A DNA stretch of 64,000 nt from an uncultured Spirochaetaceae bacterium (GCA_964474355.1 CAYYSY010000312.1:1517-65516); one strand, 5' to 3'; counted from the stretch's first letter, positions 2,858 through 54,807 are shown. The notes: generated by a model from the sequence alone, not told the origin. A program made the numbers and translations.

Positions 2858-4852
2858 TCAGAACACGCCGAACAGGCCGCCCCTCTCCTTCTTCGACTGT
2901 TCGAGCAGTGCGACGATCTCCGCATGACCGGCGGCGCCCGCGATCTGGGCGGGCGTGCGTCCACGGTCATCGCGTCGTGACGGATCCGCGCCGCGACGGA
3001 GCAGCACCTCCACCACGCCGAGATGGCCCGCCTCGGCAGCACGGATCAACGGAGTCGCTCGACCATCGCCGCGGGCCTCCACGTCGGCGCCGCGCGCGAG
3101 GAGCAGCTCGCAGACTTCGATGTGTCCCGCCGCGGCGGCGAGCAGGAGGGGCGTGTTGCCCGATGCCGATCGCAGCTCGACATCGGCGCCGCGCTCGATC
3201 AGCATGCGCGCCGTCTCGACGTCGCCCCGCCGCGCGGCGACGGCGAGCAGGCCGAGCCCGTCGCCGCAGCGCGTATCGGCGCCGGCGCCGCGGGCGAGCA
3301 GCAGCTCGACGATGTCGGTATGACCGTGCTGCAGCGCCTGGCAGACCGGCGCGCTTCGCCCCCGGCGCTTCGCCGCGCTCGCGCCGGCGTCGAGCAGAGC
3401 GCGGGTCGTTCGCACGTCGCCCGAGCGCACCGCGGCGTCCAGCGGCGTCGCGCCGCCGCCGTCCGCCCGCGCGAGATCCGCGCCCGCCTCGAGCAGCCGG
3501 CGTGCGGCGTCGACGTGTCCCTCCCGCGCGGCGTCGAAGAGCGGAGTTCGGCCGCGCGCGTCCCGCGCGTCGGCCGCCGCCCCCTTCTGCAGCAGGATCG
3601 CGGCGCAGTCGACGTGCCCGCCCCGGGCGGCCTCGTGGAGCGCGGTGCGGCGGCTGGCATCCCGCGCGTTCGGGTCGGCGCCGCGCTCGAGCAGGAGCGT
3701 CGCGATCTCGGCGTGTCCTCTCGCTGCCGCCAGCGCGAGCGCCGTCGCGCCATCTTCGTTCGTGCTCCGCACCGTGGCCGCGTTGCCGGCGAGCGCTCGA
3801 ACCTGCGCGGTGTTCCCACGCCAGGCGGCGATCTGGATGGGCGCCCAGCCCTCGAAGCCCGACCCCGACTCGGGCGTCGAGCTCGACGCGAGCCAGGCGG
3901 CGTCGTCGTCGCGCCTGGGCTTGCGCGTGTCCCGTGCGCCCGCGCGTCGAAGCAGCGAGACGACGTCGCGATGGCTCCCCGCCTTCGCCAGCTCGAGCGC
4001 CGAGCTCCCGGCGCGGTCCGTGCGTGCGACGTCGCTCTTCGCGCGGATCAGCAGTGCGACCACGTCGGCATGACCTCGCGAGGCCGCATTCATCAGCGGA
4101 GTGCGCCCGAAGGCATCGACCCGGTTCGGGTCGGCTCCGCCACGCAGCAGCGCCTGGGCGATGTCGACGTGGCCCGATCGGGCGGCGACGACCAGGGCCG
4201 GATCGCCGAACGCATCGGCCCTGTCGACCTTCGCGCCGCCCTCGAGGAGCGCCGTCACGACGTCCGGATGCTCCAGGCGCGTTGCCGTGTCGAGCGGCCG
4301 CCTGCCTCTTTGATCCTTCTGCTCGGCGTCGACGCCCGCTGCGAGCGCGACTCTCACGAGGCCCGGGTCGTTCGACACGACACCGCGCCAGAGATCGCTG
4401 CGGGCGAACTCCCGCGCCGCCTTGCGTTCGGTCGACAGGCGCTTCCGAGCAGGCTCGTAGCCCGCCCGAGCCGCCGATCGGATGAGCTTCATGCCTTCGT
4501 CGCGCTCTCCCGTCTGCCCCAGCAGCACGCCGAGGTTGTAGGCGGCGCGCGGGTCGCCCTTCTTCGCGGCGCCACGAAGCCAGCGCCGCGCACGGTCGAG
4601 GTCGCGCGGGACGACGACGCCGTTGCGATAGATGCTCGCGAGCCGGATCGCCGCATCGACGTCGCCCTTGCGCGCGAGCTTCTCGAGTCGCGAGATCGCG
4701 CCCCGCATGTCGCCCTCGCGGACGCGCTGGAGCGCCGGCTCGAGTGGCGGCGCAGCGGACACGTCGACGTCGGCATGGGCGAGCGTCCCGAGCAGCCAGC
4801 TGCCGACCAGAAGAGCGAGCGCCGCGCGACGCGCGAGATCAGGGCTCGCCAT
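2858..4852 (-). CDS. Secreted Sel1-repeat plus ankyrin-repeat protein (about 14 ANK repeats in two blocks)
   Basis: The ATG at 4852 was verified (cat at 4850-4852). Signal peptide: MASPDLARRAALALLVGSWLLGTLAHA. Sel1-like units include GDVDAAIRLASIYRNGVVVPRDLDRARRWL and GDPRAAYNLGVLL. There are many ANK units such as GRTPLMNAASRGHADVVALLI and GNTPLLLAAAAGHIEVCELLLARGADV. The start overlaps the upstream gene's stop by 14 nt. Confidence 0.85.
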   Translation of the reverse strand: MASPDLARRAALALLVGSWLLGTLAHADVDVSAAPPLEPALQRVREGDMRGAISRLEKLARKGDVDAAIRLASIYRNGVVVPRDLDRARRWLRGAAKKGDPRAAYNLGVLLGQTGERDEGMKLIRSAARAGYEPARKRLSTERKAAREFARSDLWRGVVSNDPGLVRVALAAGVDAEQKDQRGRRPLDTATRLEHPDVVTALLEGGAKVDRADAFGDPALVVAARSGHVDIAQALLRGGADPNRVDAFGRTPLMNAASRGHADVVALLIRAKSDVARTDRAGSSALELAKAGSHRDVVSLLRRAGARDTRKPRRDDDAAWLASSSTPESGSGFEGWAPIQIAAWRGNTAQVRALAGNAATVRSTNEDGATALALAAARGHAEIATLLLERGADPNARDASRRTALHEAARGGHVDCAAILLQKGAAADARDARGRTPLFDAAREGHVDAARRLLEAGADLARADGGGATPLDAAVRSGDVRTTRALLDAGASAAKRRGRSAPVCQALQHGHTDIVELLLARGAGADTRCGDGLGLLAVAARRGDVETARMLIERGADVELRSASGNTPLLLAAAAGHIEVCELLLARGADVEARGDGRATPLIRAAEAGHLGVVEVLLRRGADPSRRDDRGRTPAQIAGAAGHAEIVALLEQSKKERGGLFGVF

Positions 4853-6152
4853 GCAATGTCTCCATCTCGACGCCGACCTCGCGCAAGAACCCGAAAGGCA
4901 GCTCACCGCCAGCGCACACGATGATGGCGTCGTTCGGGATCGTCTCCTCGCCAGCCTCGACCTGCAAAGTGACGCTCGCGTCGTCGATGCGCGCGACGGT
5001 CGAAGTGCGCACCACGCGGATCCGCTCGGCGCGCTCACGCTCGTCGAGCTTGCTGCGGTTCGGCGGCTTGGCGCGCCCGAACGAATCGCCGCGGCACGAG
5101 AGCGTCACGACGGTCCCCGGCTCGTCGGCGAGCGAGATCGCGGCCTCGAGCGCGCTGTCGCCCGCACCCACGACCAGCACGTGGCGGCCCCGATGATCGG
5201 CCGGGTCTTCGAGCAGATAGGTGACCTTGGCGAGCTCTTCGCCCGCGGCGCCGAGACGGCGCGGCGAGCCTCGCCGGCCTATCGCGAGGACGACCGCGCG
5301 GCAGGTGAACTCACCGCTCGTCGTCGTCACGCGGAAGCCCGCGCCGTCGCTCTCGATCGCGCTCACCTTTTCTCCGTAGTCGATCTCGACTCTGGTCTCG
5401 CGCTCGGTGCGTTGCCACAGCTCGAGCAGCGCCTCCTTGGTCGTCTCGCGCAGCTTCACCTTGCCCACGAGCGGCAGCTCGACCGGCGCCGTGAGCACGA
5501 GCTTGCGGCGTGGATAGTGGGCGACCGCGCCGCCGAGCGTGTCCTGCTCGAGCGTGCGCGCGCGCAGGCCGTGCTGCTTCGCCGCGAGGGTGGCGGCGAA
5601 GCCCGCCGGGCCCGCGCCGACGATCACGACGTCGACCCGGTCGCCCTGGCCGATGCCGTCGAGGTCCCGCACCGAGTCGATCACCTGACGCCCCTGCTCG
5701 ATCGCGTTCCGGATGAGCCCCATGCCGCCGAGCTCGCCGACGATGAACAGGCCGGGCACGCTCGACTCGAAACGTGCATCGAGCACCGGGACCTCGACGC
5801 CGCGCTCCTTCGTGCCGATCACGAGCGTGATCGCGTCGAAGGGGCAGGCGTCGCGGCACGCGCCGTGCCCCACGCAGTTCGCCGCGTTCACGAGCACGGC
5901 CTTGCCTTCGAGCACCTGGAGCACGTCCGACTCGGGGCAGGCCGTGACGCACGCGCCGGAGCCCAGGCAGCGGATCGGGTCGATGAAGGGGTGGAGCGCC
6001 GCGGGCAGGTGGAGCCCTTCTTCGCGGGCGGACTCGATGGCCTCGCGAATGCGTGAGTCACGCCTGCGCCGACGCAGGACGAACCAGACGAACACGGCGA
6101 TCAGTGGGACGCCGTAGACGAGCCAGGCGATGAGTGAGGTCGAGTCCATCAT
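4839..6152 (-). CDS. Membrane-anchored ferredoxin-domain / FAD-NAD(P) pyridine-nucleotide-disulfide-type oxidoreductase
   Basis: ATG ATG at 6152/6149. An N-terminal TM (LIAWLVYGVPLIAVFVWFVL) is followed by RRRRRD, so the catalytic part should be cytoplasmic (positive-inside). Two ferredoxin-like motifs are CLGSGACVTACP and CVGHGACRDACP. Two Rossmann motifs are VVIVGAGPAGFAA and VLVVGAGDSALEAA. There are 4 nt between this start and the upstream outer-membrane-protein stop. Confidence 0.85.
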   Translation of the reverse strand: MMDSTSLIAWLVYGVPLIAVFVWFVLRRRRRDSRIREAIESAREEGLHLPAALHPFIDPIRCLGSGACVTACPESDVLQVLEGKAVLVNAANCVGHGACRDACPFDAITLVIGTKERGVEVPVLDARFESSVPGLFIVGELGGMGLIRNAIEQGRQVIDSVRDLDGIGQGDRVDVVIVGAGPAGFAATLAAKQHGLRARTLEQDTLGGAVAHYPRRKLVLTAPVELPLVGKVKLRETTKEALLELWQRTERETRVEIDYGEKVSAIESDGAGFRVTTTSGEFTCRAVVLAIGRRGSPRRLGAAGEELAKVTYLLEDPADHRGRHVLVVGAGDSALEAAISLADEPGTVVTLSCRGDSFGRAKPPNRSKLDERERAERIRVVRTSTVARIDDASVTLQVEAGEETIPNDAIIVCAGGELPFGFLREVGVEMETLHGEP

Positions 6153-6156
6153 CTGA

Positions 6157-8238
6157 TCAGAAGTCCCACCGGACGCCGAAGACGAGCGAGTAGGTGTTCT
6201 CGGTCGGCCGCGCGCTGTCGCCCACGCCTCCGCTCCACCCGTAGGCGAAGTCGAGGTCGAAGAAGAGGTCACGCCACCCGTAGTCGAGCCGCACGCGCGG
6301 GACGAAGTGGATCGAGTCGTCCTCCGTATTCTGGTACTCGAGCCGCAGGATCGGGTTCAGCCTGAGCCGGCGCCAGACCGGGAAGCGCCCCGTCGCCTCG
6401 AGTACGTAGCGGTCGGTGCGCCCGCCGTCGAAGATGCGGAGCCCGAAGCTCGTGACGTCGCCGTCCATCACGAGCGACCGCACACCGAGCTGGACGAAGT
6501 AGCCGAACTCGTAGCCGGTCCCGGGGAAGCCCTGGACGCCTCCGGATGTCTCCGTGCCGCCCAGGCTCATCGCGCTGAAGCTGCCGTTCACGTTCATGCG
6601 GTCGTGAAAGTCCCAGCGTGCGCCCGTCGAGAAGTTGGTCGCGGTCGCGCTGCGGTCCTTCGCGAGCTGCTTCAGCTGGTCCTCGCTGAACGTCGCCGCG
6701 AGCTCTTCGAGTGACGATGCGCCCTGGCCGATCAACGCGTTGCCCATCGTCACGATCGGGCTCTTGCGGTACTCCAGCAGGCCGTTGACGCTGACCGTCT
6801 CGGTGATCTGCTGGTTGCCGAGCAGGGTCGCGATGTTGACGACGTTGAAGTACGCGTCGTAGTCGAGGGTCCCCACGATCGTGCGCCCCGATCGGAGATG
6901 CCGGAGCTCAGCGCCGATCGCGCCACGGTACGTGAGGTTCGCCTCGTTCTGGTAGTTGCCGTAGAGCTCGACGTCGACGAGCGAGAAGACGTCGAGCACA
7001 CGAATGGCGCCGCCCACCTGATAGCGATCCGTGTTGATGTTGTCGGACGCGTAGCTCTCGAGCGGGAAGCCTCCGAGCACCTGCACATCGATGCGGTCGG
7101 TGGCGCGGTAGCCGAGTCGCGCGCCGTCGAAGCGGCCGATCACGCCCCCGTCTCCCCGTTGGCGTCCGACGTTGCCCCACCACCCACGCCCTCGCTCGGA
7201 GACCTCGACCAGGAGCAGGCTCAGCCGCGAGTCGCTGCCGATCGACTCCCTGCCGAAGTCGAGCCGCGTGCGGCCTGCCGCGCTCGTCTCGACCTCGAGC
7301 CGGTCGGTTCGCATGCGCGCCCGCACGAAGAGATCGGTGAACCACGACGAGTCGTAGAGCGTGTCGCCGAAGTCGTCGTCGAAGAAGCCCTGGGCGCGCG
7401 AGTAGTAGCTGAGGAGGCTTCCGTTCACGTCGAAGCGCGTGCCGCCCGAGCGCGCGCGGCCCGAAGTCCGCTCGGACGGGAGCGTGCTGGCGGTGGCCAG
7501 CGCCTGCAGCCGCTGGCGCACGCGCGGCGCGTGCTCGTGGTCGGGATAGCGCTCGAGGAAGCGTTCGTACTCCGCCTTGGCGTGAGCGCGCTGGCCGCTT
7601 CGCTCGCGCGCGAGTCCGAGGAGCTCGAGCGCTTCCGGGTGCGCCCCTGGCGCATTGAGGGACAGCACGCGGGTGCAGAGCTGAGCGGCGCGGGCCGGGT
7701 CTCCTTCTGCGAGCGCGCGGTTCGCGTCGGCGAGCAGGCCCGCGGCCGCCGCCTCGTAGCGGGGAGCGCCCGCCCCGCCCGCGTCGGGGATCCGGATCTC
7801 GAGCCGGTGCAGCTCCGAGCCCTGCACGATCTCGAAGGCCGTCTTGCGCGCGAACCGCACCTCGATGACCAGCCCGTGGTCGGCGGCCGAAGGCAACGTC
7901 TCGATCGATACGACGGGCGCCTTCGCGTCCGGAGCGAATGGTCGAAAGGTGTCGCCTGGGACGAGCCCGGCTTCGTCGGTGCGGCCGAGCCCGAGCGCGC
8001 GCAGCTCGATGCGCACGCTCTCGGCCGGCGCTCGCGGCGAGTGGCTCATGTAGCGGAGTGGCGCCGTGAAGCCGAGCTCGACGAGCCAGCCCGACTCGGT
8101 GCGCTTGCCGTCCACGGCGCGGACCGTCTTCGCGCCCTGCGCGTGCGCGAGGGTCGACCCTGTGACCAGCAGCAGGGTCACGATCGCACCCACGACGCGC
8201 CGCAGGTGCGCGGGATGGGCGCGCTTCGAAATGGACAT
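6157..8238 (-). CDS. Outer-membrane beta-barrel protein with an N-terminal AMIN-like domain and a TPR segment
   Basis: ATG at 8238 (cat 8236-8238). Signal peptide: VVGAIVTLLLVTGSTLAHAQG. AMIN-like segments: VRAVDGKRTESGWLVELGF...VRIELRALG and HGLVIEVRF...LHRLEIRIPD. TPR-like segment: ARAAQLCTRVLSLN...AKAEYERFLERYPDHEHAPRVRQRLQAL. About 420 aa of alternating-hydrophobic strands end in the outer-membrane-type terminus VFGVRWDF. Confidence 0.75.
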   Translation of the reverse strand: MSISKRAHPAHLRRVVGAIVTLLLVTGSTLAHAQGAKTVRAVDGKRTESGWLVELGFTAPLRYMSHSPRAPAESVRIELRALGLGRTDEAGLVPGDTFRPFAPDAKAPVVSIETLPSAADHGLVIEVRFARKTAFEIVQGSELHRLEIRIPDAGGAGAPRYEAAAAGLLADANRALAEGDPARAAQLCTRVLSLNAPGAHPEALELLGLARERSGQRAHAKAEYERFLERYPDHEHAPRVRQRLQALATASTLPSERTSGRARSGGTRFDVNGSLLSYYSRAQGFFDDDFGDTLYDSSWFTDLFVRARMRTDRLEVETSAAGRTRLDFGRESIGSDSRLSLLLVEVSERGRGWWGNVGRQRGDGGVIGRFDGARLGYRATDRIDVQVLGGFPLESYASDNINTDRYQVGGAIRVLDVFSLVDVELYGNYQNEANLTYRGAIGAELRHLRSGRTIVGTLDYDAYFNVVNIATLLGNQQITETVSVNGLLEYRKSPIVTMGNALIGQGASSLEELAATFSEDQLKQLAKDRSATATNFSTGARWDFHDRMNVNGSFSAMSLGGTETSGGVQGFPGTGYEFGYFVQLGVRSLVMDGDVTSFGLRIFDGGRTDRYVLEATGRFPVWRRLRLNPILRLEYQNTEDDSIHFVPRVRLDYGWRDLFFDLDFAYGWSGGVGDSARPTENTYSLVFGVRWDF

Positions 8239-8379
8239 CTCTTCTCGAACGATCAGCATCGGCCAGCCGCCAGTGGCGCGAAAGCCCGCCGCACACGTGG
8301 GCGACGACAAAAGGGGTTCACGAATATGCGTCGCCTCGCCGAAGTATGAGCGTGTCGAACGTCACCATCCGAGGCGCCC

Positions 8380-8405
8380 TTCCGAACGATGTAATTCCGA
8401 ACGAT
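8380..8405. promoter_or_regulatory. Direct repeat TTCCGAACGAT-GTAA-TTCCGAACGAT in the divergent intergenic region (candidate operator)
   Basis: Exact 11-mers lie at 8380-8390 and 8395-8405. A third core, CGAACGAT, lies at 8246-8253, and TCGAACGT lies near 8355. The region has locally lower GC. It sits between the outer-membrane-protein operon (minus) and the cytochrome operon (plus). Confidence 0.3.
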
Positions 8406-8581
8406 CTGCTGCGGATGAGCCCGGATCCTCGAGTGGGGAATTCTGCCCCGCCTCCGCCCCGATCCGCGTCGTATGCAGAAGGCCGCATGCATTGACTCTC
8501 GATCTCGACACCGATGAGCGAGCCACCGATGCAGCGGCGTCGAAAGGGCGCTGTACTCCCACCGGCAGCTCACACGCGCCG

Positions 8582-9514
8582 ATGATGGGGATGGACAGGT
8601 TGGACGAAGAGGCGGCCCGAGTCGGGTCGGGCACCGGACGCGATCGCAGCGAGCGCACGAAGGGCGCAGCCCGCACGCGGGCGCCGGGTGCCGGACCGCG
8701 CGTGGCGCGCGCCATGCTGCTGGGGCCGGTGGGCCTGGCTTGCGCCGTCGCCATCGCCTTCGGCTGGCGCACGCGCGACGAGTACTACGTGGTGCCCGAC
8801 GAAGGCCTCGGCTATGCGCTCGGCATCGTCGGGCTCGTGATGATGCTCCTGCTGCTGCTCTACTCCGTCCGCAAGCGCTGGTCGGTGCTCCGCAACGCCG
8901 GGCCCCTGCGTCACTGGTTCCACATACACATGGCGCTCGGCCTGCTCGGGCCGACCGCGATCCTCTACCACTCGAACTTCAGCCTGGGCTCGCTCAATGC
9001 GAACGTCGCGCTGCTCTGCATGCTGACGGTGAGCGCGAGTGGAATCGTCGGACGCTTCATCTACACGCGGATCCACTACGAATTTCGCGGCCGGGTCGCG
9101 AGCCTCGCGGATCTTCGCGCGGAGGCGCAGGCGGAGGGCGCGGTGCTGGCCGAGGCGACGCGTGTCGCGCCGCGGATCTCCGAGGTGCTCGACGCGCACC
9201 GCGCGTGGGCCTTTCGCGGCCGCAGCCTGCCGGGCCGCCTCGCGATGATCACGGTCGTCGGCATGCGTGGGCGCGTGGCGCGCCGCCGGGCGCTGCGCGC
9301 GTGGCGCCGATCGGCATCCTCGAACCGCGCGACCTCGCCTGCAGCGCACGACGTGCGCCGGGCCGTCAAGGCGCAGATCGCGGCCATTCGGCGCGTGGCG
9401 GAGTTCTCGACGTACGAGCGCTTCTTCGCCCTGTGGCACGCGCTCCATCTCCCCTTCTGCGTCGGTCTCTATGCGGCCGCGACGGTGCACGTCGTCGCGG
9501 TCCACATGTACTGA
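8582..9514 (+). CDS. Polytopic membrane protein (about 5 TM) with His-rich helices; possible b-type haem or quinol-interacting subunit
   Basis: The start is uncertain: ATG at 8582, 8591 or 8714 (MLLGPVGLACAVAIAFGW). TM helices include GYALGIVGLVMMLLLLLYSV, HWFHIHMALGLLGPTAILYHS, NVALLCMLTVSASGIVGRFIY and FALWHALHLPFCVGLYAAATVHVVAVHMY. It lies directly upstream of two multihaem cytochromes (23-nt gap). The N-terminal part of the 8066 ORF is Arg/Ser-rich and is not used. Confidence 0.6.
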   Translation: MMGMDRLDEEAARVGSGTGRDRSERTKGAARTRAPGAGPRVARAMLLGPVGLACAVAIAFGWRTRDEYYVVPDEGLGYALGIVGLVMMLLLLLYSVRKRWSVLRNAGPLRHWFHIHMALGLLGPTAILYHSNFSLGSLNANVALLCMLTVSASGIVGRFIYTRIHYEFRGRVASLADLRAEAQAEGAVLAEATRVAPRISEVLDAHRAWAFRGRSLPGRLAMITVVGMRGRVARRRALRAWRRSASSNRATSPAAHDVRRAVKAQIAAIRRVAEFSTYERFFALWHALHLPFCVGLYAAATVHVVAVHMY

Positions 9515-9536
9515 GCGTCGACGGTTGGCTTCGAAG

Positions 9537-11144
9537 ATGCGATTCGCGGGACGGCACGGTGAGACCGGGTGTGCGACGCCGTGGCGCTCGCTGATCCTCG
9601 CGGCGGTCTTGCTCCTGAGCGCCACGCAGGCGACGGCCGCGGGGCTGGAGGATCTCGTGTCGCCCGGCGATCTGATCGCCGCTCACGAGCGCGAGACGAA
9701 GGAGTGCGGTGACTGTCACGAGCGCTTCGATCGAAGCTCGCAGAGCAGGCTGTGCCTCGTCTGTCACGAGGAGGTCGCGGATGACGTCCAGCGCGGTCGA
9801 GGACTCCATGGGCGACTCGGCGCGGGCGACGGCAGCGAGTGCCGGGTCTGCCACACCGACCACAAGGGCGAGGCCGCGGACATCGTGGGTCTCGTGAAGG
9901 AGTCGTTCGATCATCGCCGCACGGACTTTGCGCTCGAAGGGCTGCACGGCTCGGTGCCGTGCGCCGACTGCCACGCGAAGGGCGAGCGCTACCGGGAGGC
10001 GGAGCCCGGCTGCGCGACCTGTCACGGCGACGCCGATCCGCATCGCGGCCAGCTGGGCGACGATTGCCAGCAATGCCACACGCCGCGCGACTGGACGTCG
10101 GTCGAGTTCGATCATGCGTCGACGAAGTTCCCTCTCGAGGCGGGCCACGCCGACGCGGCGTGCGCCTCGTGTCATCCGAGGGGACGCTTCGAGGCCGTGT
10201 CGACCGACTGCGTGTCGTGTCATCGCGTCGACGACGCGCACCGCGGACGGCTCGGCAACGCGTGCGGCGACTGTCACGATCCGTCGGGCTGGGACCGGAC
10301 GGTCTTCGACCACGACCGCAAGACGCGCTTCGCGTTGCGGGGCGCTCACGCCCGCATCGACTGTCGCGCGTGCCACGTCTCGGAGCCGAGCGAGGTCGAG
10401 CTGTCGATGGACTGTGTGAGCTGCCATCGCCTCGACGACGATCACCGCGGCGCGCGCGGCAAGCAATGCGGCGACTGTCACCGCACGCAGTCGTGGTCGC
10501 GCAGCCACTTCGACCACACACGAGACGCGAGCTTCGCGCTGCACGGAGCCCACGCCAGCGTCGCGTGCGAGCTCTGCCACACCGGCAGCCCTGCGACGGC
10601 AAAGACGCCCACGCGCTGTGTGGAATGTCACGAGACCGAAGACGTGCATCGCGGTACCCTCGGCGCCGACTGCGGGCGGTGTCACACGAACGCGAGCTGG
10701 TCGCGCCGGGTAACCTTCGATCACGACTTCACCGACTTCCCGCTGCTGGCCCTCCACCAGCTCGCCTCGTGTGAGGACTGCCACGCGAGCCACCGCTTCG
10801 CCGACGCCGCGACCGACTGCATCGGCTGCCACGCGCGCGACGACGCCCACGAGCGCCGGCTTGGGAACGACTGCGCGCGGTGCCACAATCCGAACGGGTG
10901 GCGCTTCTCGCAGTTCGAACACGAGAGAGAGACGGACTTCGCGCTGACCGGTGGACACGAGTCGCTCGAGTGCGTCGCCTGCCACGTGAAGCCCACGTCG
11001 GGGCCGTCGACGAAGCTCTCCGCGTCGCCGCGGTGTGCCACGTGCCATCTGAGCGACTCGCCGCACGATGACGCGTACGGGCGGGACTGCCAGCGCTGCC
11101 ACGTCGTCGAGTCGTGGGAGAGGACGAAGCAGGGGGTGCGATGA
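9537..11144 (+). CDS. Multihaem c-type cytochrome, 21 CXXCH motifs (7 x c7-like trihaem modules)
   Basis: The ATG at 9537 was verified. Signal peptide: WRSLILAAVLLLSATQATAAG. I counted 21 CXXCH motifs: CGDCH, CLVCH, CRVCH, CADCH, CATCH, CQQCH, CASCH, CVSCH, CGDCH, CRACH, CVSCH, CGDCH, CELCH, CVECH, CGRCH, CEDCH, CIGCH, CARCH, CVACH, CATCH, CQRCH. The recurring module is CxxCH..DxHxGxLGxxCxxCHxxxxWxxxxFDHxxTxFxLxGxHxxxxCxxCH. Confidence 0.92.
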   Translation: MRFAGRHGETGCATPWRSLILAAVLLLSATQATAAGLEDLVSPGDLIAAHERETKECGDCHERFDRSSQSRLCLVCHEEVADDVQRGRGLHGRLGAGDGSECRVCHTDHKGEAADIVGLVKESFDHRRTDFALEGLHGSVPCADCHAKGERYREAEPGCATCHGDADPHRGQLGDDCQQCHTPRDWTSVEFDHASTKFPLEAGHADAACASCHPRGRFEAVSTDCVSCHRVDDAHRGRLGNACGDCHDPSGWDRTVFDHDRKTRFALRGAHARIDCRACHVSEPSEVELSMDCVSCHRLDDDHRGARGKQCGDCHRTQSWSRSHFDHTRDASFALHGAHASVACELCHTGSPATAKTPTRCVECHETEDVHRGTLGADCGRCHTNASWSRRVTFDHDFTDFPLLALHQLASCEDCHASHRFADAATDCIGCHARDDAHERRLGNDCARCHNPNGWRFSQFEHERETDFALTGGHESLECVACHVKPTSGPSTKLSASPRCATCHLSDSPHDDAYGRDCQRCHVVESWERTKQGVR

Positions 11145-12244
11145 AGATGCGCGACCACGTGAATCCCCCGACGATCATCGCCCTGGCAATGGCGCTCGCC
11201 CTGGTCTGGGCACTCTCGATGGAACGGCGCGCCGGGGCGGAGGAGGGCAGGGAGACCGACAGCCGCGCCGAGTCGGAGATCGTCTTCGACGAGCGCTTCG
11301 ACCACGTCGGCACGCGCTTCATCCTGACCGGCTCGCACGAAGGCGTCGCGTGCGAGAGCTGCCACGCGATGGGCGTCTTCCGCGGAACGCCGATGTCGTG
11401 CGGCTGGTGCCACGACGGCTCGGGCACGCGGGCCGAGTCGGGCAAGCCGCTCAGCCACGTTCCGACCTCGAACCAGTGCGACGACTGCCACACGACGTTC
11501 ACGTGGCTGGAGGTCCGCTTCGAGCACAGCGGGGTGACGGGCGCGTGCACGAGCTGCCACAACGACGTCCAGGCCGAGGGCAAGCCGCTGGGGCACGTCG
11601 TCACGAACGAGCAGTGCGATTTCTGTCACAACACGTTCGTGTGGCAGTCCATCCGCGTCGATCACTCGAACATCACGGCACCCTGCTCGAGCTGTCACAA
11701 CAACGTCGACGCGACGGGCAAGCCGATGGATCACATCGTCACGAGCTCGGAGTGCGACGCTTGTCACTCGACCCGCGCCTGGGTCCCTGCGACGTTCGAC
11801 CACGCGGGCATCGTGAGCGACTGCGCGAGGTGTCACAACGACGTCGATGCGTCGGGCCTGCCGGATGGGCACTTCATCACGATGCAGGACTGCAGCGCGT
11901 GCCACACGACGAACGCCTGGCGCCCGGACACCTTCCGGCACATGTCGGCGAACTATCCGGGTGACCACGCGCGTGATCTCGATTGCACCGAGTGTCATCC
12001 GGGCAACAGCGAGATGGTCGTCTATACCGACGATCCGAACCTGGCGCCGTATTGCGCGGGCTGCCACAAGAACGACTTCGATCCCGATCCGCACAAGCAG
12101 CACGAGAATCCGGATCACGACTACACGGCGGACGAGCTCGCCGACTGCACCGGCGCGTGCCACATCTACACCGACTCGAGCCTCACTGTGATCAAGGAGG
12201 CGCGCAGCGGCGAGCACCGCGTGAGCGACCGCGACTTCGACTAG
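11141..12244 (+). CDS. Multihaem c-type cytochrome, 11 CXXCH plus one CX3CH motif
   Basis: The ATG at 11141 overlaps the previous stop (ATGA). Signal or anchor: PPTIIALAMALALVWALS. Motifs: CESCH, CGWCH, CDDCH, CTSCH, CDFCH, CSSCH, CDACH, CARCH, CSACH, CTECH, CAGCH, plus CTGACH. The repeating dihaem unit is CxxCHNxVxAxGKPxxHxxTxxxCxxCHxTxxWxxxxFDH. Confidence 0.9.
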   Translation: MKMRDHVNPPTIIALAMALALVWALSMERRAGAEEGRETDSRAESEIVFDERFDHVGTRFILTGSHEGVACESCHAMGVFRGTPMSCGWCHDGSGTRAESGKPLSHVPTSNQCDDCHTTFTWLEVRFEHSGVTGACTSCHNDVQAEGKPLGHVVTNEQCDFCHNTFVWQSIRVDHSNITAPCSSCHNNVDATGKPMDHIVTSSECDACHSTRAWVPATFDHAGIVSDCARCHNDVDASGLPDGHFITMQDCSACHTTNAWRPDTFRHMSANYPGDHARDLDCTECHPGNSEMVVYTDDPNLAPYCAGCHKNDFDPDPHKQHENPDHDYTADELADCTGACHIYTDSSLTVIKEARSGEHRVSDRDFD

Positions 12245-13158
12245 GCGTTGCCCACGAGCTCGAGTGCGCCCCGTGCGCCGGCGTGGCCGCCGTCGGGCAG
12301 CAGCCGCGTCTCCATGCCGAAGCTGGCGCCGACGCGGACCAGGATCTTCTGGAGCGCCGGGTTGTCGTTCAGCGTGCTGCCGCCGAAGACCCAGCGCGGC
12401 GTCTGCGTCATGGCCGAGACGCCGGCGCAGACGAGCGCCACGTTCTCGGCGACGAGGCTCATCACGCCCACCGCGAGGTCCTCGCGGCTCGGGGCGCCGG
12501 CCTCGCCGCGTCCCTCGGCGAGCCAGCGGCTGAGCTTTCCGAACGCCGACGCGGTCGTCTCGCCCGGCAGGGCGATCTCGCCCGCTTCGTAGATGTCCGC
12601 GACGAGCAGGTCGACGCGCGATGGATCGCCGCGACCGGCCAGCTCGCAGAGCTCGGCGAAGCTCTCGCAGCCGGTCAGCGCCACGCCGAGGCCGAGCACG
12701 GTGCCGCCGCCGAGCGCGGTGCCGCCGACACGCAGCACGTCGCCGTCGGCGACGCGCATGACCGATGTGCCCGTGCCGAGCGAGATCAGCAGATAGGGTG
12801 CGCTCTCGTCGAAGCCCTCGCCGTCCGCGTCGCCCAGCTGGGCGTGGGCGCCCGCGCCCCAGGCCGCGAACTCCTGGAAGTGGCCGGTGCCCGTGGCGCC
12901 ACGCTCGGCGCAGCGGGCCTCGATGACCTTCGCGCCACAGCCCGTGAGCCCGACCCGGTCGGGCTGGAGCCGCGCGACCTCGTCCATGACGTCGGCGACG
13001 TGACCGGAGAGCAGCGTCTCGTAGCGGACGTCGCCCGCGTCGGTTCGTACCGCGAGCTTGGCCAGCGTCGCGCCCGCGTCGATGCCGACGGTCGTGCCGC
13101 CATTGCCTCGAAAGTCGTTTTCTTGCTGGGGATTCAATGGGTTACACTCGCCCGCCAA
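12241..13158 (-). CDS. coaW: Type II pantothenate kinase-like (fumble/CoaW) ASKHA-fold ATPase
   Basis: Motifs: TVGIDAGATLAKL (phosphate-1), LLISLGTGTSV, GGTALGGGTVLGLG. TTG at 13158 is the only in-frame start upstream of the first motif. Its stop overlaps the cytochrome stop on the opposite strand (CTAG at 12241-12244). Confidence 0.55.
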   Translation of the reverse strand: MAGECNPLNPQQENDFRGNGGTTVGIDAGATLAKLAVRTDAGDVRYETLLSGHVADVMDEVARLQPDRVGLTGCGAKVIEARCAERGATGTGHFQEFAAWGAGAHAQLGDADGEGFDESAPYLLISLGTGTSVMRVADGDVLRVGGTALGGGTVLGLGVALTGCESFAELCELAGRGDPSRVDLLVADIYEAGEIALPGETTASAFGKLSRWLAEGRGEAGAPSREDLAVGVMSLVAENVALVCAGVSAMTQTPRWVFGGSTLNDNPALQKILVRVGASFGMETRLLPDGGHAGARGALELVGNA

Positions 13159-13169
13159 TTGGAACTGCC

Positions 13170-15119
13170 ATGTATACCGCGTTCTACGGACTTCGCGAGA
13201 AGCCGTTCAGCCTGACACCGAATCCCCGCTTCCTCTTCCTGGCCGAGAGCCACCGGGAGGCGCTCGCCCATCTGCTGTATGGGCTCGAGCAGGGGGAGGG
13301 GTTCATCGTCGTGTCGGGCGAGGTCGGCACGGGCAAGACGACCATCTGCCGCACCCTGCTCGAGCGCCTCGGCGTCGAGACCGAGCTCGCCTTCCTCTTC
13401 AATCCGTCGGGCACTGCCGACGAGATGCTGCAGAGCGTGAACGAGGAGTTCGGGCTGCCGGCGACGGGGCTCTCGCGGCGCGAGCTGCTCTCGCAGCTGA
13501 ACCGGTTCCTGCTCGACAAGAATCGCGAGTCGAAGCGCGTCGTGCTGATCATCGACGAGGCGCAGAACCTGTCCACCACGACGCTCGAGCAGGTGCGTCT
13601 GCTCTCGAACCTCGAAACGACGACGTCGAAGCTGATCCAGATCATCCTGCTCGGTCAGCCCGAGCTCGGCGAGAAGCTCGACAGCGAAGAGCTGCGGCAG
13701 CTGCGCCAGCGCATCGGCGTGCGCTGGCAGCTCTGTCCCCTGAGCCAGGCGGAGACGGGGCAGTACGTGCGGCACCGGCTCCGCGTAGCCGCGGGCGCCG
13801 ACCGCAGCGCGCTCTTCAGCGATGGCGCGCTTGCCGAGGTGCACAAGCGCACGGGTGGTGTGCCGCGGCTCGTGAACGTGCTCTGTGATCGCGCTTTGCT
13901 CGCGGGCTATGCGGCCGAGGCCGCGCAGATCGACGCCGAGCTCGTGAAGCAGGCGGCGCGCGAGATTCGCGATCTGCAGGGCGAGGCGTTCGGCAGCAAG
14001 GGGCGCCGCCGTCGTGCTCGACATGCGTGGTGGCTCGCTCCGCTTGCGGCCGTGTTGGCGGCGCTCGCCGTGGGCGCCGGCCTCTGGCTCGGGCGCGGCG
14101 ACGGGGGCAGGGCGATCCGAAGCCTGATCGACGGTGTGGGCTCGGAAGGGCCGCCTGCAGTGTCTGCGCCCGCGGCGCCGGCTCGCACGGCACGGTCCTC
14201 CGAGCTGCCCCCGGTCTCGGCGCGCCCGCCGGGCGCCGAGACGTCCGCACCCCGGGCCGGACGCGATCCGGCGAGTGCATTGCGTGGCGACGCCGTTGCG
14301 ATCCAAACGGGACACGACGCGTCCTCCGCGGCCGTCTTCGATGCCGAGTGGCAGGCGAGCCGTGACGCGCGAGGCCCGCGGCCCGAGGCGCCAGCCAACG
14401 GATTCCCCGGCAGCGAAGCGGATGCGCTGCGTGACGACGCCGGGGATGGCAGCTTCCTCGCGCACTTGCTCGCCGAGGTGCCGGCGTCGACGACCCGGGC
14501 ACTCGCCGTGACCGAGATCCTCCACGTCTGGGGCAAGCCGGCGGAGGGCGTATCGGGGGCGACCGAGGCGCTGGCGCTCGCGCGGCTGCGCGACGCAGGG
14601 CTCGCCGTGCACACGGTGCTCGCGAGCTCGCTCGAAGAGCTCGCCCTGCTCGATCATCCGGCGCTCATCGAGGTGCGCGACGGCGAGGGCGAGACGCACT
14701 GGCTGGCGCTCGTCGAGCTGCGGCCGTCGGTCGCGTTCGTGGGGGGCGTCGTCGACCGCGGGCCGATCGGCGTGTCGCACGAGGCGCTCGAGGGCCACTT
14801 CGAAGGGCGTGCCTACGTCGCGTGGTCGCCCGGCTTCGAGCTCCTTGGCGCGCCGATGCTGAGCGCGGGCTCCCAGGGCATGCCCGTGCGCTGGGTGCAG
14901 CAGGCACTCGTCGAGCTCGGATATCTCAGCGCCGTCGCGGCGGTGCCGGACGACGGGAGCGCGGTGTACGACGCGGCCACGCGCCGGGGCATCGAGCGCT
15001 TCCAGCGTGCCCAGGGCCTGCGGCAGGACGGCATCACCGGTCCGATCACGCTCATGCGCCTCGGCGATGCGCTCGGCCGCAACGCACGCCCGCATCTGCG
15101 CGCGGGGGGCGCGGGATGA
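13170..15119 (+). CDS. gspA: GspA/ExeA-like AAA ATPase with a C-terminal peptidoglycan-binding domain
   Basis: N-terminus: MYTAFYGLREKPFSLTPNPRFLF. Walker A: SGEVGTGKTT. Walker B: VVLIIDEAQNL. A TM helix (WWLAPLAAVLAALAVGAGLWL) is present. The C-terminal PG_binding_1-like segment is VRWVQQALVELGYL...IERFQRAQGLRQDGITGPIT. Confidence 0.85.
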   Translation: MYTAFYGLREKPFSLTPNPRFLFLAESHREALAHLLYGLEQGEGFIVVSGEVGTGKTTICRTLLERLGVETELAFLFNPSGTADEMLQSVNEEFGLPATGLSRRELLSQLNRFLLDKNRESKRVVLIIDEAQNLSTTTLEQVRLLSNLETTTSKLIQIILLGQPELGEKLDSEELRQLRQRIGVRWQLCPLSQAETGQYVRHRLRVAAGADRSALFSDGALAEVHKRTGGVPRLVNVLCDRALLAGYAAEAAQIDAELVKQAAREIRDLQGEAFGSKGRRRRARHAWWLAPLAAVLAALAVGAGLWLGRGDGGRAIRSLIDGVGSEGPPAVSAPAAPARTARSSELPPVSARPPGAETSAPRAGRDPASALRGDAVAIQTGHDASSAAVFDAEWQASRDARGPRPEAPANGFPGSEADALRDDAGDGSFLAHLLAEVPASTTRALAVTEILHVWGKPAEGVSGATEALALARLRDAGLAVHTVLASSLEELALLDHPALIEVRDGEGETHWLALVELRPSVAFVGGVVDRGPIGVSHEALEGHFEGRAYVAWSPGFELLGAPMLSAGSQGMPVRWVQQALVELGYLSAVAAVPDDGSAVYDAATRRGIERFQRAQGLRQDGITGPITLMRLGDALGRNARPHLRAGGAG

Positions 15120-16159
15120 GCACGATCCTCAAGGCGCTCAAGAAGCTCGAGCACGACAAGCAGGTCGACGCCGCGCAAAGCCGCGCCCACGATCCGCTCG
15201 CGCCCGCCCCCGAGCCGATGGTGGCGCCCAGGCCAGAGCCCGAGGGCGAGTGGCGGGGACTGTGGGGGCTGATCGCCGGAGTCGCCGCCCTGTTCTGTGT
15301 GGGTGTCGGGTTCGGCGTCTATACCCTTTCGCGCGACGAGGGCGGCTCTGCCTCGACGCCCGCCGTGGCGGCTGCGCCCGGCGCGGGTGGAGGCATGGTG
15401 CTCGCGGCGCCGGCCCGGCCGGACTTCCACCGCATGCCGCCGGTCGCGGGCGTCGAGCCGGTGGGCGCCGGCTCGGGCGCAACGTCTCCTCGTTCTTCAC
15501 AGCCGACGCGGCTCGCTGCGGCCTCGTCGGCGCCAGACCCGTGGGAGGAGGCGGCCACGGCCACGACCACGAATTCGGCGTCACCCGACGCGGCCGCCCG
15601 CCCGCCGGACCGGCCTGCGACGCCCGTCGTCGCTGCCCCGCCTCCGACTCGGGCTCCGTCCAGCCCGACGCCGGCCGCATCCACGGCGCCGCCCGCTGCG
15701 TCGCGCACGGCCCCCTCGCCGGTCGCCCCTTCGACGCAGGCGTCGCGCGATGTGCCGGAGCCGTCGGGCGTACCCATCGCCGCGCTTCCCGTCATCGACC
15801 TGCCCGAGGAAGAGCCGCCTGCGGCCGTGTCGGCGCCCCCCGAGCCCGCGGCGTCCGTTCCCGCCGAGCCCGCGCCGGAGTCGAGCGCCGCGGCGGTCGC
15901 AGAGGTGCCGGCTCGTCCCGGTCTCGGGAACGTCGTCGTGAGTGACGCGGCCGAGCGCGTCGACGTGAAGGTGCTGAAGACGGTCTGGCACCCGAAGCCC
16001 GACCGGCGCTCGGCTCGGCTCGAGCTCTCGAATCGCGAGAGCCCCGTCGAGGTCCACGAGTCGGATCTGGTGGAGGGCTACGTGGTGGAGGAGATCACGC
16101 CTTCGAAGGTCCTGCTCTCGAAGGACGGCGTGACGCTCACGCGACGCGTAGGGGACTGA
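15116..16159 (+). CDS. gspB: GspB/ExeB-like protein (N-terminal MSxILxALKK box, TM, Pro/Ala-rich linker, C-terminal GspB-type domain)
   Basis: The ATG at 15116 overlaps the gspA stop (ATGA). Sequence: MSTILKALKKLEHDKQ; TM helix GLIAGVAALFCVGVGFGVYTL; C-terminus VKVLKTVWHPKPDRRSARLEL...VEGYVVEEITPSKVLLSKDGVTLTRRV. Confidence 0.7.
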   Translation: MSTILKALKKLEHDKQVDAAQSRAHDPLAPAPEPMVAPRPEPEGEWRGLWGLIAGVAALFCVGVGFGVYTLSRDEGGSASTPAVAAAPGAGGGMVLAAPARPDFHRMPPVAGVEPVGAGSGATSPRSSQPTRLAAASSAPDPWEEAATATTTNSASPDAAARPPDRPATPVVAAPPPTRAPSSPTPAASTAPPAASRTAPSPVAPSTQASRDVPEPSGVPIAALPVIDLPEEEPPAAVSAPPEPAASVPAEPAPESSAAAVAEVPARPGLGNVVVSDAAERVDVKVLKTVWHPKPDRRSARLELSNRESPVEVHESDLVEGYVVEEITPSKVLLSKDGVTLTRRVGD

Positions 16160-39146: not shown

Positions 39147-42100
39147 TCAGTTCAGGTGGTTGCAGTCCTCGACGTAGCCGAGATTCATGAGCTGCAGGCA
39201 CTCGTCGAGGGTCATCTCGACGTCGCCGCCCGATGCGACGGCCTCGCCCTCGGCGGCTCGGCGCTGCAGATCGGCGTAGCTCCTGAGCTCGTCGATCCGC
39301 ATCCGGTCCGAGTCGGCGAGGTTGTGCGCCTCGCTCGGATCATCACCGATCTGATACATCGACTCGGCGGGGAAGTCACGATGCCTGCCCCCCTTCTCGA
39401 CGACGATGACCTTGCTCATCGACTCGTCGGTGAGGCTCCACATCACGTTGCCCTCGTGATCCTCCTCGGCGAAGTGCTGGCGATCCTTCGAGCTGCGGTC
39501 GGCGTCGCTCACGTAGAGCGAGAGGCCCTGCATTCGATCGGTGGGCTGGGCCCCTGCGACGTCGAGGATCGTCGGCACCACGTCGATGTGGCGCGCCATC
39601 TGCGTCCAGGGCGGCGCCATCGCGCCCTTCGCGGGCTTGATCAGCATCGGCACGTGGATCTGCTCCTCGAAGAGTGTGAGCCCGTGCCACCAGCCCTCGT
39701 GCTCGTAGAACTCCTCGCCGTGGTCGGCGGTGAGCACGATCATCGTGTCGTCGTAGACGCCGAGCTCCTTCAGGTGCGCGACGAGCTCGCCCACGGCCTC
39801 GTCGAGGTACTCGATCTCGCCGCGATAGAGACGCTTCAGATCCTCGGTCTCCTCGGCATTCGGCCAGGCGTTCGAGACCCGCGCGAAGCCGCGCCCGTCA
39901 TAGGGGTGCTCGAAGTAGGGGTCGTGGACGTCCATGTAATGGAGGAAGAGATAGAAGCGGTCGTCCTTGAAGCGGTCGAGCCAGTCGAGGGCGACTGCGT
40001 TGACGACGCGCGAATCTTGATAGAAGCCGTCGAAGGTGATGCCGCTCTTCATCTTGAAGTGGAGCTGGCGGTACAGCTGGTAGAGAATCAGCTTCGACGA
40101 CGATTCGGCAGAGCCGAGGAGGTAGCCCGGCGCGAGGTAGTGGTACTCGTTGTAGCCCTGGTCGAAGCCGAAGCTCAGCGCGAGGTTGATGTTCGAGACC
40201 ACTCCGCCCGTCGAGTAGCCGTGCTCCTGCAACACCTCCGAGACGAGATCGACTTCGTCCGAGAGGCGCGAAGGCTTGCTCATCGCGTTGTGCGTCGTGG
40301 GGACGAGCGAGCTCAGCAGGCTGGCCGTCGCCGGCTTCGTCCATGACGCGTGGGCGTAGCCGTCGAGGATGATGCCGCCGTCCTGCTCGCCCAGCCCGCA
40401 GATGTTCGGCGCCTTCACGCTGTCGTCGCCATAGCAGGGCAGATAGTCGGCGCGGAGCGTGTCGACCATGACGAGGACGACGTTCGGGCGACCGCGAAGC
40501 CCGTCGGCGACCGAGCCCTTGGGCGGCGTGACGTTCGGGCCATAGCCCAGCCCGAGGGCGAGCCCGGTGCCCATGACGAGCACCAGCAGCCCCCCTGCGA
40601 TGGGAGCGCGCGCGATGATGCCCGCACGCGACGAGAAGAAGCGGTGCCCGAAGAAGAGCAGCGCGGCCGCGAGCAGGGCGAAGCCTGCGAGCACCGCGAG
40701 TACCACCGGCGCCGGCGGCATCTGCTCGAGGTAGACGTCGCGGCGCAGGCGGAAGAGCGTGACGAAGAGCCCGAGCGGCACCAGGCAGGCGGTGAAGCCG
40801 AGCGTCGGCGTCCAGCGCTGCACCTCGTCGTGGTCCATCGGCAGTACGCCGAGCACGAGGCCGCCGATCGTGCCGAGGCCGCCGAGGAAGACCGAGTACA
40901 TCATCGGGCCGTACCACATCACCTGGGCTTCCTCGCCGAAGCCGCCCTGGGCGATGACGAACGTCTCGGCGACACCGAGCACGATGCCCGCCAGGACACC
41001 CGAGCCGAAGCCCACGCTGGCGCTTCGCATGAGCCGCTCGCCCATCGGCGCGGCCGCACCGACCTCGGCTTCGAGCTCCTCCTTCGAGCGCTCCGGGTCG
41101 AGGGCCACGGCCGCCTTCGCCGCCTCCTGCCAGTCGACCTGCTCGCCGTTCACCCGCGCGTACTCGGGGGTGTAGTCGGCGGGGCGGATCCACCAGAAGA
41201 CGAAGCCGATCATCGTCGGTGCTTCGGCAGCCCAGAAGCCGAGGGCCGCGGAGACCACCGCGGCGCCGGCACCGATCTGCCCCGAGAGCAGCAGGGCCTG
41301 GGCGGCTTCGCGGATGCCCTCACCGGCGATGGTGAACGGGCTGATCACCGTGGCGAAGATCTGGATCGAGGAGCCGAAGGCCACCTCCCAGAACTTCGCT
41401 CCTTCGGCGCCGATCGCGAGTGCCGTGTAGAAGTACATCATGGCCGTGGTGAAGTGCACCATGAAGCTCATGGCGAAGATCATCAGCACCAGGCCCTTCT
41501 TGTCGCGGTAGGCGCCGGCGCTCTCGCTGATGCGTGTCACGATGCCTTCGAGCCGCGGCTTCGCGGGGATCGGCACGTTCGTCAGCACCCACTGCACGAC
41601 GCCCGGGTAGAAGAGCACGACCATCAGGCCGCCGATGATGCCGAGGGCGATCAGCGCCGAGACGTATGCGACCCAGGCGAGGTCGCCGAGGATCGCGATG
41701 CCGAAGGGCAGCGTGACGAGGAAGGTCAGGAAGATGCCGCTGAAGCCGCAGATCTTCTCGAGGAACTTGCCGGCCGACACCTCGACGGTCTTGCCCGTGA
41801 AGCGCGCCGCGTCGTAGAGCGTGTAGCCGTCGAGGCCGGCGGTGCTCGGCAGGAACGTGCCGAGCGCCCGGCCGATCATGAACGAGCCGAAGATGTGCTT
41901 GAAGGGAAGCTCGATGCTCTGCCCCTTGAGCACGAGCAGCCAGCGATACATCGAGCAGAGGATGCCGACGATCTTCACGCCGGTGGCCACGAGCACCCAG
42001 AACCAGAAGGTCGCCGGATCGATGTTCTCGTAGATCTCGACGATCATCGACCAGACCGTCTGACGCTCGCCCGCCTCGTTCGCGAGCTCGTAGGCGAAGA

Positions 42101-42230: not shown

Positions 42231-42595
42231 GTGGGGTGACTCTCCATGAACTTCATGGCCGCCGAGCGAGGGACTCTCGCGAGAGGCGACCTGGGAGCTG
42301 GGCGCCCGACTCCGAGATCCGAGCATCGAGCACTCGGCGTCGGCGACGGGACGCGGGACACGCCCGCCGGCTCGGGACGGGATCTTGGCCGTCCGGGCGC
42401 GTCGAGCGAGCCGCCCATGATGCCCGAAGGTGGGCCCGAGCGGGCGGCATCTTACCCGGGTTTGTGGCGCGTCGAGCCGTCGGGGTGTCGGAATCCCTCT
42501 GGGGTTTCAGAAGGACGCACTCCACGCGCAGCAGCCGCGGTGAGAGTCCGGTCGGGCTGCAGCCTTCGCATCCGAGCGGCGCGCCCCGCCGTGAA

Positions 42596-47185: not shown

Positions 47186-47361
47186 CGTGGGCGACGGCTC
47201 GCCGAGATCGCCGGCGTCGTCGCCCCCCTGAGCACCCCCCGGACCGAGCGTTCCGCATGCCGACCGTCGAACCCGACGGAGCCGGCGTCGTGCATGCGGT
47301 GACCGGAACGCCGGCCCAACGGGTCGAGCGGACGACCGGCCGACCTCGAGGAGGCGGGTGC

Positions 47362-51569: not shown

Positions 51570-51606
51570 TGCGGGGCCCGATGCATGCGCTGGGGGGGGT
51601 GCTCTG

Positions 51607-53319: not shown

Positions 53320-53321
53320 AC

Positions 53322-54797: not shown

Positions 54798-54807
54798 GCC
54801 GAGGGGC

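Follow-up and report, generated by a model that had tools for sequence, protein, structure and literature searches.

We analysed a 64,000-nt window of DNA (~70% G+C) from an uncultured Spirochaetaceae bacterium (GCA_964474355.1 CAYYSY010000312.1:1517-65516), in which positions are counted along the whole stretch. Three genes at 8582-12244, which encode a His-rich membrane protein and two multihaem cytochromes c, are one half of a six-gene cluster arranged in two divergent operons, 2858-8238 on the minus strand and 8582-12244 on the plus strand. Compared with the published description, the cluster is very probably a member of PCC3, a putative porin-cytochrome c cluster (He, Barco, Emerson & Roden 2017, Front Microbiol 8:1584, PMC5566968). 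We suggest that the six genes probably encode a PCC3-type trans-envelope electron conduit, and we tentatively propose that an iron-sulfur (Fe-S) flavoprotein of the minus-strand operon is the direct cytoplasmic partner of the membrane protein, rather than or besides quinones. PCC3 as a kind is already known from the literature, where it was defined computationally; new are the lineage, the wider phyletic spread, the porin in a divergent operon, and the consistent presence of the flavoprotein and of an ankyrin protein.

Six genes of a putative porin-cytochrome c cluster

The cluster consists of the following genes, with protein lengths in amino acids (aa), those of the plus strand taken from the translation:

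2858-4849, minus strand: protein with Sel1 and ankyrin repeats, 663 aa
4839-6152, minus strand: membrane-anchored Fe-S flavoprotein, 437 aa
6157-8238, minus strand: outer-membrane beta-barrel protein (PCC3 "porin"), 693 aa
8582-9514, plus strand: inner-membrane protein (PCC3 "IMP"), 310 aa
9537-11144, plus strand: periplasmic 21-haem cytochrome c, 535 aa
11141-12244, plus strand: second multihaem cytochrome c, 367 aa

In the plus-strand operon, the membrane-protein and 21-haem genes are separated by 22 nt (9515-9536), and the start of the second cytochrome gene overlaps the stop of the 21-haem gene by 4 nt (ATGA). The original prediction, which concerned this operon, had given the overlap correctly and the gap as 23 nt. 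Translation and motif counts bore out its three co-directional genes, with a His-rich protein of five transmembrane (TM) helices, 21 CXXCH motifs in the first cytochrome and 11 CXXCH plus CTGACH in the second, and the His-containing strings that it quoted are present in the membrane protein. Its statement that no reductase gene is adjacent overlooked the divergent operon, which carries an Fe-S/FAD/NAD(P) oxidoreductase gene. There, the flavoprotein gene starts 4 nt past the stop codon of the barrel-protein gene, and the start of the ankyrin-protein gene overlaps the stop of the flavoprotein gene by 11 nt. Scanning and reading of the intergenic region between the two operons (8239-8581) revealed no consensus promoter, terminator or obvious AT-rich operator.

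PCC3 was described as a set of a porin, two multihaem cytochromes, one extracellular and one periplasmic (the latter with a median of 21 haems), and an inner membrane protein that is conserved, and it was reported in Alpha-, Beta- and Gammaproteobacteria (PMC5566968). First, the described inner membrane protein has ~300 aa and five TM helices, with SGxxG on TM4 and W-x3-H-x13-H on both TM3 and TM5 (PMC5566968). The window protein has 310 aa, five TM helices, two W-x3-H-x13-H motifs and SGxxG, and the subunit for which no family had been found can thus be assigned as the PCC3 "IMP" of He et al. Second, the periplasmic cytochrome of PCC3 contains seven ~66-aa repeats with 21 haems, or 26 aa per haem (PMC5566968, Supplementary Figure 1), and that of the window seven repeats of ~67 aa, or 25.5 aa per haem. 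Third, the porin of Leptothrix cholodnii PCC3 was predicted to have 22 strands (PMC5566968, Supplementary Figure 1), and the window barrel has 22 in its AlphaFold2 (AF2) model. Finally, the outer cytochromes of PCC3 show 26-30 aa per haem (PMC5566968, Supplementary Figure 1); set against the description of the "extracellular" member, with at least 10 haems, the second cytochrome of the window has 12 sites and 30.6 aa per haem.

The 21-haem protein begins with a signal-like segment and contains exactly 21 CXXCH motifs, 46 His and 2 Met, so that bis-His ligation of all 21 haems is possible. It matched Pfam Cytochrome_C7 (PF14522) over 7 stretches (E 1.1e-26, 92.9 bits against a cutoff of 24.8), which agrees with the earlier view of it as a c7-polymer cytochrome. 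The protein is built of seven tandem c7-type trihaem modules, each with three CXXCH motifs and three further conserved His residues, and exactly 21 CXXCH motifs were counted in 63 of the 75 complete homologues.

The second cytochrome has an N-terminal hydrophobic segment and a 23-aa haem repeat, and its CTGACH (CX3CH) motif lies at residue 336; CX3CH near the C-terminus was observed in 41/79 homologues. This 12-haem protein corresponds to the variable "extracellular" cytochrome of PCC3, and by analogy we assume a location at the surface. Across loci, its counterparts carry from a few up to 57 haem motifs in complete genes. Second cytochromes of 1,420-1,740 aa with 57 CXXCH motifs were found at three loci (L048, L057 and L078), and at a further locus (L071, 14990-20783) an open reading frame (ORF) of >1,900 aa with 61 CXXCH motifs runs to the locus end and is possibly incomplete; the periplasmic partner stays at 21.

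The AF2 model of the barrel protein (mean predicted local distance difference test, pLDDT, 86.2) consists of a signal helix, a beta-sandwich (residues 39-151), a TPR region (159-248) and a 22-strand barrel (268-692), and the sequence ends in GVRWDF. Pfam gave only TPR matches, and Foldseek returned outer-membrane porins, AlgE and usher pores (E ~1e-10, probability 1.0), none of them close. With this barrel in the divergent operon, the relay from the inner membrane to the periplasm that was originally proposed appears incomplete, and the system becomes a candidate trans-envelope conduit. In many lineages, barrel homologues (P0156, P0165, P0173, P0202, P0238 and others) contain an N-terminal SPOR (peptidoglycan-binding) domain instead of or alongside TPR, which hints that the conduit may be tied to the cell wall.

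We then examined the conservation of the cluster. A scan with one genome per species yielded >560 relatives of the membrane protein, and in the best 80 loci we called ORFs and compared these with the six proteins of the cluster; the counts of synteny depend on these calls and on phmmer thresholds. Among the 42 "full" loci, which have at least 9 kb on both sides, the 21-haem homologue was present in 42/42, a second cytochrome after the 21-haem gene in 42/42, the barrel protein in 41/42, the flavoprotein in 39/42 and the ankyrin protein in 37/42, and all five partner families were found together in 36/42. The order of the three plus-strand genes, whose synteny in relatives had been in question, is thus kept in every full locus, and its recurrence across many phyla is far beyond chance. 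When we looked from the other side, at three flavoprotein homologues on long contigs, all three adjoined a gene of the size of the ankyrin-protein gene and a convergent set of porin, two cytochromes and membrane protein. The pairwise distances of the five families are also correlated (r 0.72-0.86), and none of 300 permutations reached the observed value.

The closest loci among the best 80 belong to Myxococcota and "delta proteobacterium" metagenome-assembled genomes (MAGs; 67% identity); the other carriers include many Gammaproteobacteria, Alphaproteobacteria, Nitrospira, Nitrospinaceae and Spirochaetes. Homologous clusters are present in a Gallionella MAG (L081) and a Bradyrhizobium isolate (L039), and both lineages have been reported as PCC3 carriers.

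The membrane protein and its flavoprotein neighbour

The membrane protein contains no haem-c motif and 11 His residues, and its hydrophobic segments fit five TM helices by hydropathy. The AF2 model (pLDDT 91.5, predicted template modelling score 0.80) agrees on the five TM helices and places a cytoplasmic helical bundle of ~110 aa (pLDDT about 86-98) between TM4 and TM5. The gene start is uncertain, with ATG codons at 8582, 8585 and 8591 and alternatives at 8702 and 8714; the long form is favoured because a conserved basic motif before TM1 lies upstream of the 8714 start.

Alignments of 31 and of 118 homologues revealed invariant residues in three helices: W112-x3-H116-x13-H130 in TM3; S153-G154-x-x-G157, R158 and Y161 in TM4; and W285, H286, H289, P291 and H303 in TM5, where they form W285-x3-H289-x13-H303. 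H165 is near-invariant. Of 81 homologues that were translated from independent genomes, 78 carry both W-x3-H-x13-H motifs with SGxxG between them. Since TM3 and TM5 are parallel, H116 and H289 would pair near the cytoplasmic face and H130 and H303 near the periplasmic face, and the 14-residue rise of ~21 Å would correspond to the usual spacing of two b haems. Such a placement of the His pairs would suit bis-His ligation of haem b, a point raised in the original prediction, and judged by these motifs the protein is very probably a dihaem cytochrome b with two b haems.

A word-indexed search detected >900 relatives of this protein, and a hidden Markov model (HMM) search of 1.84 billion representative proteins gave 3,928 matches at E <= 1e-3 and 881 at E <= 1e-30. 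Neither Pfam nor NCBIfam contains a family that matches it at threshold; the only Pfam hit of the window protein was Ni_hydr_CYTB (E 0.056, 13.7 bits against a cutoff of 30.1). When sub-threshold Pfam matches were pooled over 118 members, DUF4405 appeared in 51/118 (best E 0.0039), Ni_hydr_CYTB in 19/118 (1.2e-4) and Ferric_reduct in 7/118 (0.0011). We read these weak matches to three b-type haem membrane families as a sign of remote relationship, not of membership. A sequence-profile search of the PDB gave nothing significant, and Foldseek of the AF2 model against the PDB revealed no relative (best E 0.3, TM-score at most 0.34), so the fold cannot be called NOX-like or cytochrome-b-like on structure. 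Two homologues of 255-281 aa (P0041 and P0059) are named "pyridine nucleotide-disulfide oxidoreductase" in NCBI and lack a flavin domain; the name is probably a carry-over from the neighbouring flavoprotein gene.

The flavoprotein begins with a TM helix, continues with a ferredoxin domain for two clusters and ends in an FAD plus NAD(P) domain resembling FNR of the TrxR type and YpdA, with Pfam matches to Fer4 families and Pyr_redox_3/Pyr_redox_2. In the PDB it comes nearest to 7a76/7a7b (YpdA/Bdr) and to ferredoxin-NADP reductases of the TrxR type, and 2zbw, 5ygq and 3ab1 are further similar chains. In 55/55 homologues the TM helix is followed by basic residues, and the rest of the protein should therefore be cytoplasmic. 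The Fe-S motifs lie in the region of residues 62-103. The first is C-x2-[C/S]-x2-C-x3-CP, with Ser in the window protein and in 10/62 homologues; the second is C-x2-H-x2-C-x3-CP, in which His replaces the second Cys and is invariant (62/62). The motifs suggest a Cys3His cluster, and possibly also a 3Fe or Ser-ligated cluster. In other enzymes, His ligation is a trait of clusters that pass electrons to partners.

Both Rossmann motifs of the flavoprotein, for FAD and NAD(P), are conserved. Among 62 homologues we found no conserved redox-active CxxC in the flavin domain, and Cys 284, 353 and 413, which are its only Cys residues apart from those of the Fe-S motifs, are not conserved; a disulfide reductase of the TrxR/YpdA type was ruled out on this ground. 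Its conserved TM anchor, the invariant His-ligated Fe-S motif and the lack of a disulfide active site make the protein resemble an NAD(P)H:Fe-S electron-transfer module. With a mean identity of 58%, no other part of the cluster is as well conserved. The third protein of the operon matched Pfam Ank_2 (E 7e-84) and Sel1, and its N-terminus resembles a signal peptide in 47/49 homologues, so it should be periplasmic; a role as periplasmic scaffold or chaperone is a guess. The PCC3 literature that we searched, full-text searches included, gave no mention of the flavoprotein or the ankyrin protein, and the neighbouring genes Slit_0871 and Slit_1445 are absent from the supplement to the ES-1 transcriptome paper. 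In PCC4, an Fe-S protein gene stands beside an analogous membrane protein (He et al. 2017, PMC5566968).

A candidate electron route and its alternatives

The analysis shows sequence features, predicted folds and an association of six genes that is conserved; beyond these, we infer haem b binding, the topology of the complex, contact between flavoprotein and membrane protein, the direction of flow and the substrate as follows. In the five-TM protein, two b haems would lie stacked across the inner membrane, with one His of TM3 and one of TM5 as the ligands of each, and on the periplasmic side the protein would contact the 21-haem cytochrome. The latter, a rod of seven trihaem modules, is in principle long enough to span the periplasm and enter the 22-strand barrel, and at the cell surface or beyond it the rod would meet the 12-haem cytochrome. 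In the cytoplasm, the Fe-S flavoprotein would most likely dock on the large helical domain of the membrane protein. The proposed chain would then run from NAD(P)H to FAD, Fe-S, haem b, haem b, 21 haem c and 12 haem c. Outward flow to an extracellular acceptor would be the thermodynamically easy direction, downhill in redox potential and helped by the membrane potential; both would oppose inward flow to NAD(P)+.

The flavoprotein is included in this chain because it is conserved, has its own membrane anchor and carries a His-ligated cluster, and also because the membrane protein has a large, well-ordered cytoplasmic domain and PCC4 provides the precedent of an Fe-S gene. In the AF2 model, the cytoplasmic domain appears as a well-modelled part that a plain quinol dehydrogenase would not obviously need. 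Quinol, which the original prediction had considered as the possible partner of the membrane subunit, is thus not the only candidate, since a cytoplasmic oxidoreductase of the Fe-S/FAD/NAD(P) type is encoded next to these genes and conserved together with them.

The strongest alternative is the published model, in which the dihaem-b protein acts on the quinone pool as a quinol dehydrogenase or quinone reductase, the conduit is used for Fe(II)/Mn(II) oxidation or other extracellular electron uptake, and the flavoprotein and ankyrin protein are accessories for assembly, repair or regulation. He et al. 2017 (PMC5566968) proposed quinone exchange from the same H-x13-H motifs; the PCC3 family occurs in iron oxidisers; and two of the families to which the pooled members show weak similarity, Ni_hydr_CYTB and DUF4405, include quinone-reactive b cytochromes. 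The full loci without a flavoprotein nearby also fit this model. However, both PCC3 clusters of Sideroxydans lithotrophicus ES-1 are down-regulated on Fe(II), and most carriers that we found, such as Myxococcota, Steroidobacteraceae, Bradyrhizobium, Nitrospinaceae and Spirochaetes, are not known iron oxidisers. Moreover, no quinone site was identified in the membrane protein, and a flavoprotein that is the most conserved component, brings its own TM anchor and is present in 39/42 loci is hard to square with a dispensable accessory. We therefore regard quinone coupling with a merely accessory flavoprotein as unlikely, though still deserving serious weight; quinone-pool exchange and feeding by the flavoprotein could both hold.

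A redox system confined to the periplasm, close to the view originally taken, would relay or store electrons for periplasmic partners and leave the barrel unrelated or merely structural. In Geobacter, c7 polymers are periplasmic, and the 12-haem protein of the window has a plain signal peptide without a lipobox. Against this, the barrel gene recurs in 41 of the 42 full loci; in 35/41 its position is downstream of the membrane-protein gene and its strand is that of the cytochrome genes, and its protein distances track those of the cytochromes (r about 0.8), which makes confinement to the periplasm improbable. Least plausible, and very improbable in our view, is a His-rich protein that holds no haem and serves in metal or haem handling or anchoring, for example in cytochrome maturation or tethering: it would suit the lack of a significant haem-b match and the two conserved His residues, H286 and H165, that are surplus to two bis-His haems, but W-x3-H-x13-H occurs twice on parallel helices with the classic dihaem-b spacing, and the pooled weak matches go specifically to three b-type haem membrane families.

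Several points weigh against the conduit with a flavoprotein input that we propose. Since neither a dihaem-b family nor a PDB fold matches the membrane protein significantly, haem binding rests on motif logic. The flavoprotein is absent within ~10 kb in 3/42 full loci, and no fusion of flavoprotein and membrane protein was found among the ten longest of the top 150 HMM matches, whose N-terminal extensions are TPR, SPOR or unassigned and contain no flavoprotein. The absence of a lipobox from the 12-haem protein also counts here, and co-occurrence and correlated distances can come from co-inheritance through shared ancestry alone. In addition, papers up to mid-2026, including surveys of Gallionellaceae and Leptothrix from 2023-2026, still treat PCC3 as uncharacterised or unverified.

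Taking the trans-envelope conduit with the flavoprotein input further, one may speculate that PCC3 in general is a six-component, quinone-independent "split NOX/FRE" of Gram-negatives, which exports cytoplasmic reducing power and does not serve Fe(II) oxidation; we consider this generalisation doubtful as it stands. In it, the invariant His-ligated cluster of the flavoprotein would be the exit point and would feed the dihaem-b subunit directly, and electrons would then pass along the periplasm-length 21-haem ruler and through the porin to the surface cytochrome. Its tasks could be, for example, the reduction of Fe(III) or Mn(IV) outside the cell, or redox chemistry at the surface of aerobes. 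Such export, if true, would explain why PCC3 expression does not follow Fe(II) oxidation in Sideroxydans.

Taken alone, the window is a modest result, a clean and complete example of the cluster. PCC3 is nevertheless widespread: at 50% identity, some 3,900 representatives of the membrane subunit are spread over Proteobacteria, Myxococcota, Nitrospirota, Nitrospinota and Spirochaetes. It includes some of the haem-richest proteins known and has repeatedly been listed as a candidate iron oxidase. Were the module to include the flavoprotein and the ankyrin protein, the hypothesis would shift from electrons passed from iron to quinones towards exported reducing power.

Neighbouring genes and comparison with known systems

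Two genes next to the plus-strand operon were considered as cluster parts and rejected, because no homologue of either was found beside the cluster in 80+ related loci. A homologue of type II pantothenate kinase (eukaryote/Staphylococcus type, "Fumble") lies at 12241-13158 on the minus strand, convergent with the cytochrome operon; its NCBIfam score of 172.8 is below the cutoff of 234. An AAA ATPase that is ExeA/GspA-like (TIGR03015, 311 bits, below the cutoff of 324.5) and has a peptidoglycan-binding domain at its C-terminus is encoded at 13137-16159 on the plus strand, and a Pro/Ala-rich ORF comes after it; the other loci lack this ATPase beside the cluster. Farther along, the minus strand at 39147-42326 encodes a 1,058-aa protein with an LPG_synthase_TM-like membrane domain and a sulfatase/phosphodiesterase-type domain. 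The plus strand at 47358-56088 contains a NuoH-like gene (PF00146) and three Proton_antipo_M genes (PF00361), which form a complex I-like or Mrp-like module, and this run of membrane subunits coincides with an AT skew that is strongly negative at 48-54 kb (-0.36 to -0.39).

We finally compared the cluster with known systems. The four described parts of PCC3 are all present, namely the five-TM protein, the 21-haem cytochrome, a second cytochrome with ~30 aa per haem and the 22-strand barrel. The window differs from the described clusters in several respects: its lineage looks Myxococcota- or deltaproteobacterium-like, its porin gene stands in a divergent operon and not after the cytochromes, its outer cytochrome is small with 12 haems, and its cluster adds the Fe-S flavoprotein and the ankyrin protein.

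With MtrCAB and MtoAB the cluster shares the plan of a periplasmic multihaem wire in an outer-membrane barrel with an outer cytochrome. Homology to MtrAB was rejected, since TIGR03508 (DmsE family) gave 36.2 bits against a cutoff of 192.2 and no MtrB-type Pfam match was obtained. The barrel of MtrB has 26 strands, in contrast to 22 in the window protein; the window wire carries 21 haems instead of 10, and the cluster has its own inner-membrane subunit in place of CymA.

The tandem trihaem c7-type domains (PF14522, 7 stretches) resemble those of GSU1996 and GSU2210 of Geobacter. In GSU1996, the domains have one His-Met haem, whereas the window protein has seven domains, can ligate all its haems by His pairs and is embedded in a porin cluster. 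The membrane protein is like CbcL and ImcH as the inner-membrane entry or exit point of a multihaem periplasmic network. The Geobacter parallel drawn in the original prediction does not extend to the protein itself: a relative of CbcL or ImcH was rejected for a sequence with 0 CXXCH motifs and no NCBIfam or Pfam match at threshold.

Hmc, Tmc and DsrMKJOP of sulfate reducers likewise form a transmembrane electron link, made up of a multihaem cytochrome c in the periplasm, a cytochrome b in the membrane and an Fe-S protein in the cytoplasm, and the 21-haem protein matched HmcA weakly (38 bits against a cutoff of 400). In contrast to these complexes, the b subunit and the Fe-S protein of the window show no detectable homology to theirs, no domain of the CCG/HdrD type is present, and an outer-membrane part is added.

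The NOX/FRE and two-haem cytochrome b families (PF01794, PF01292 and PF14358) also have two H-x13-H pairs, located on TM3 and TM5 in the window protein, and NOX/FRE enzymes resemble the proposed system in their cytoplasmic flavin/NAD(P)H module and in the predicted electron export. The membrane protein differs from the two-haem families in its sub-threshold sequence similarity, the absence of a Foldseek match and its five TM helices. Compared with NOX/FRE, the flavin/NAD(P)H module of the window is a separate, TM-anchored polypeptide with two Fe-S clusters, and its electrons would be accepted by a haem-c wire rather than by O2 or Fe(III) directly.

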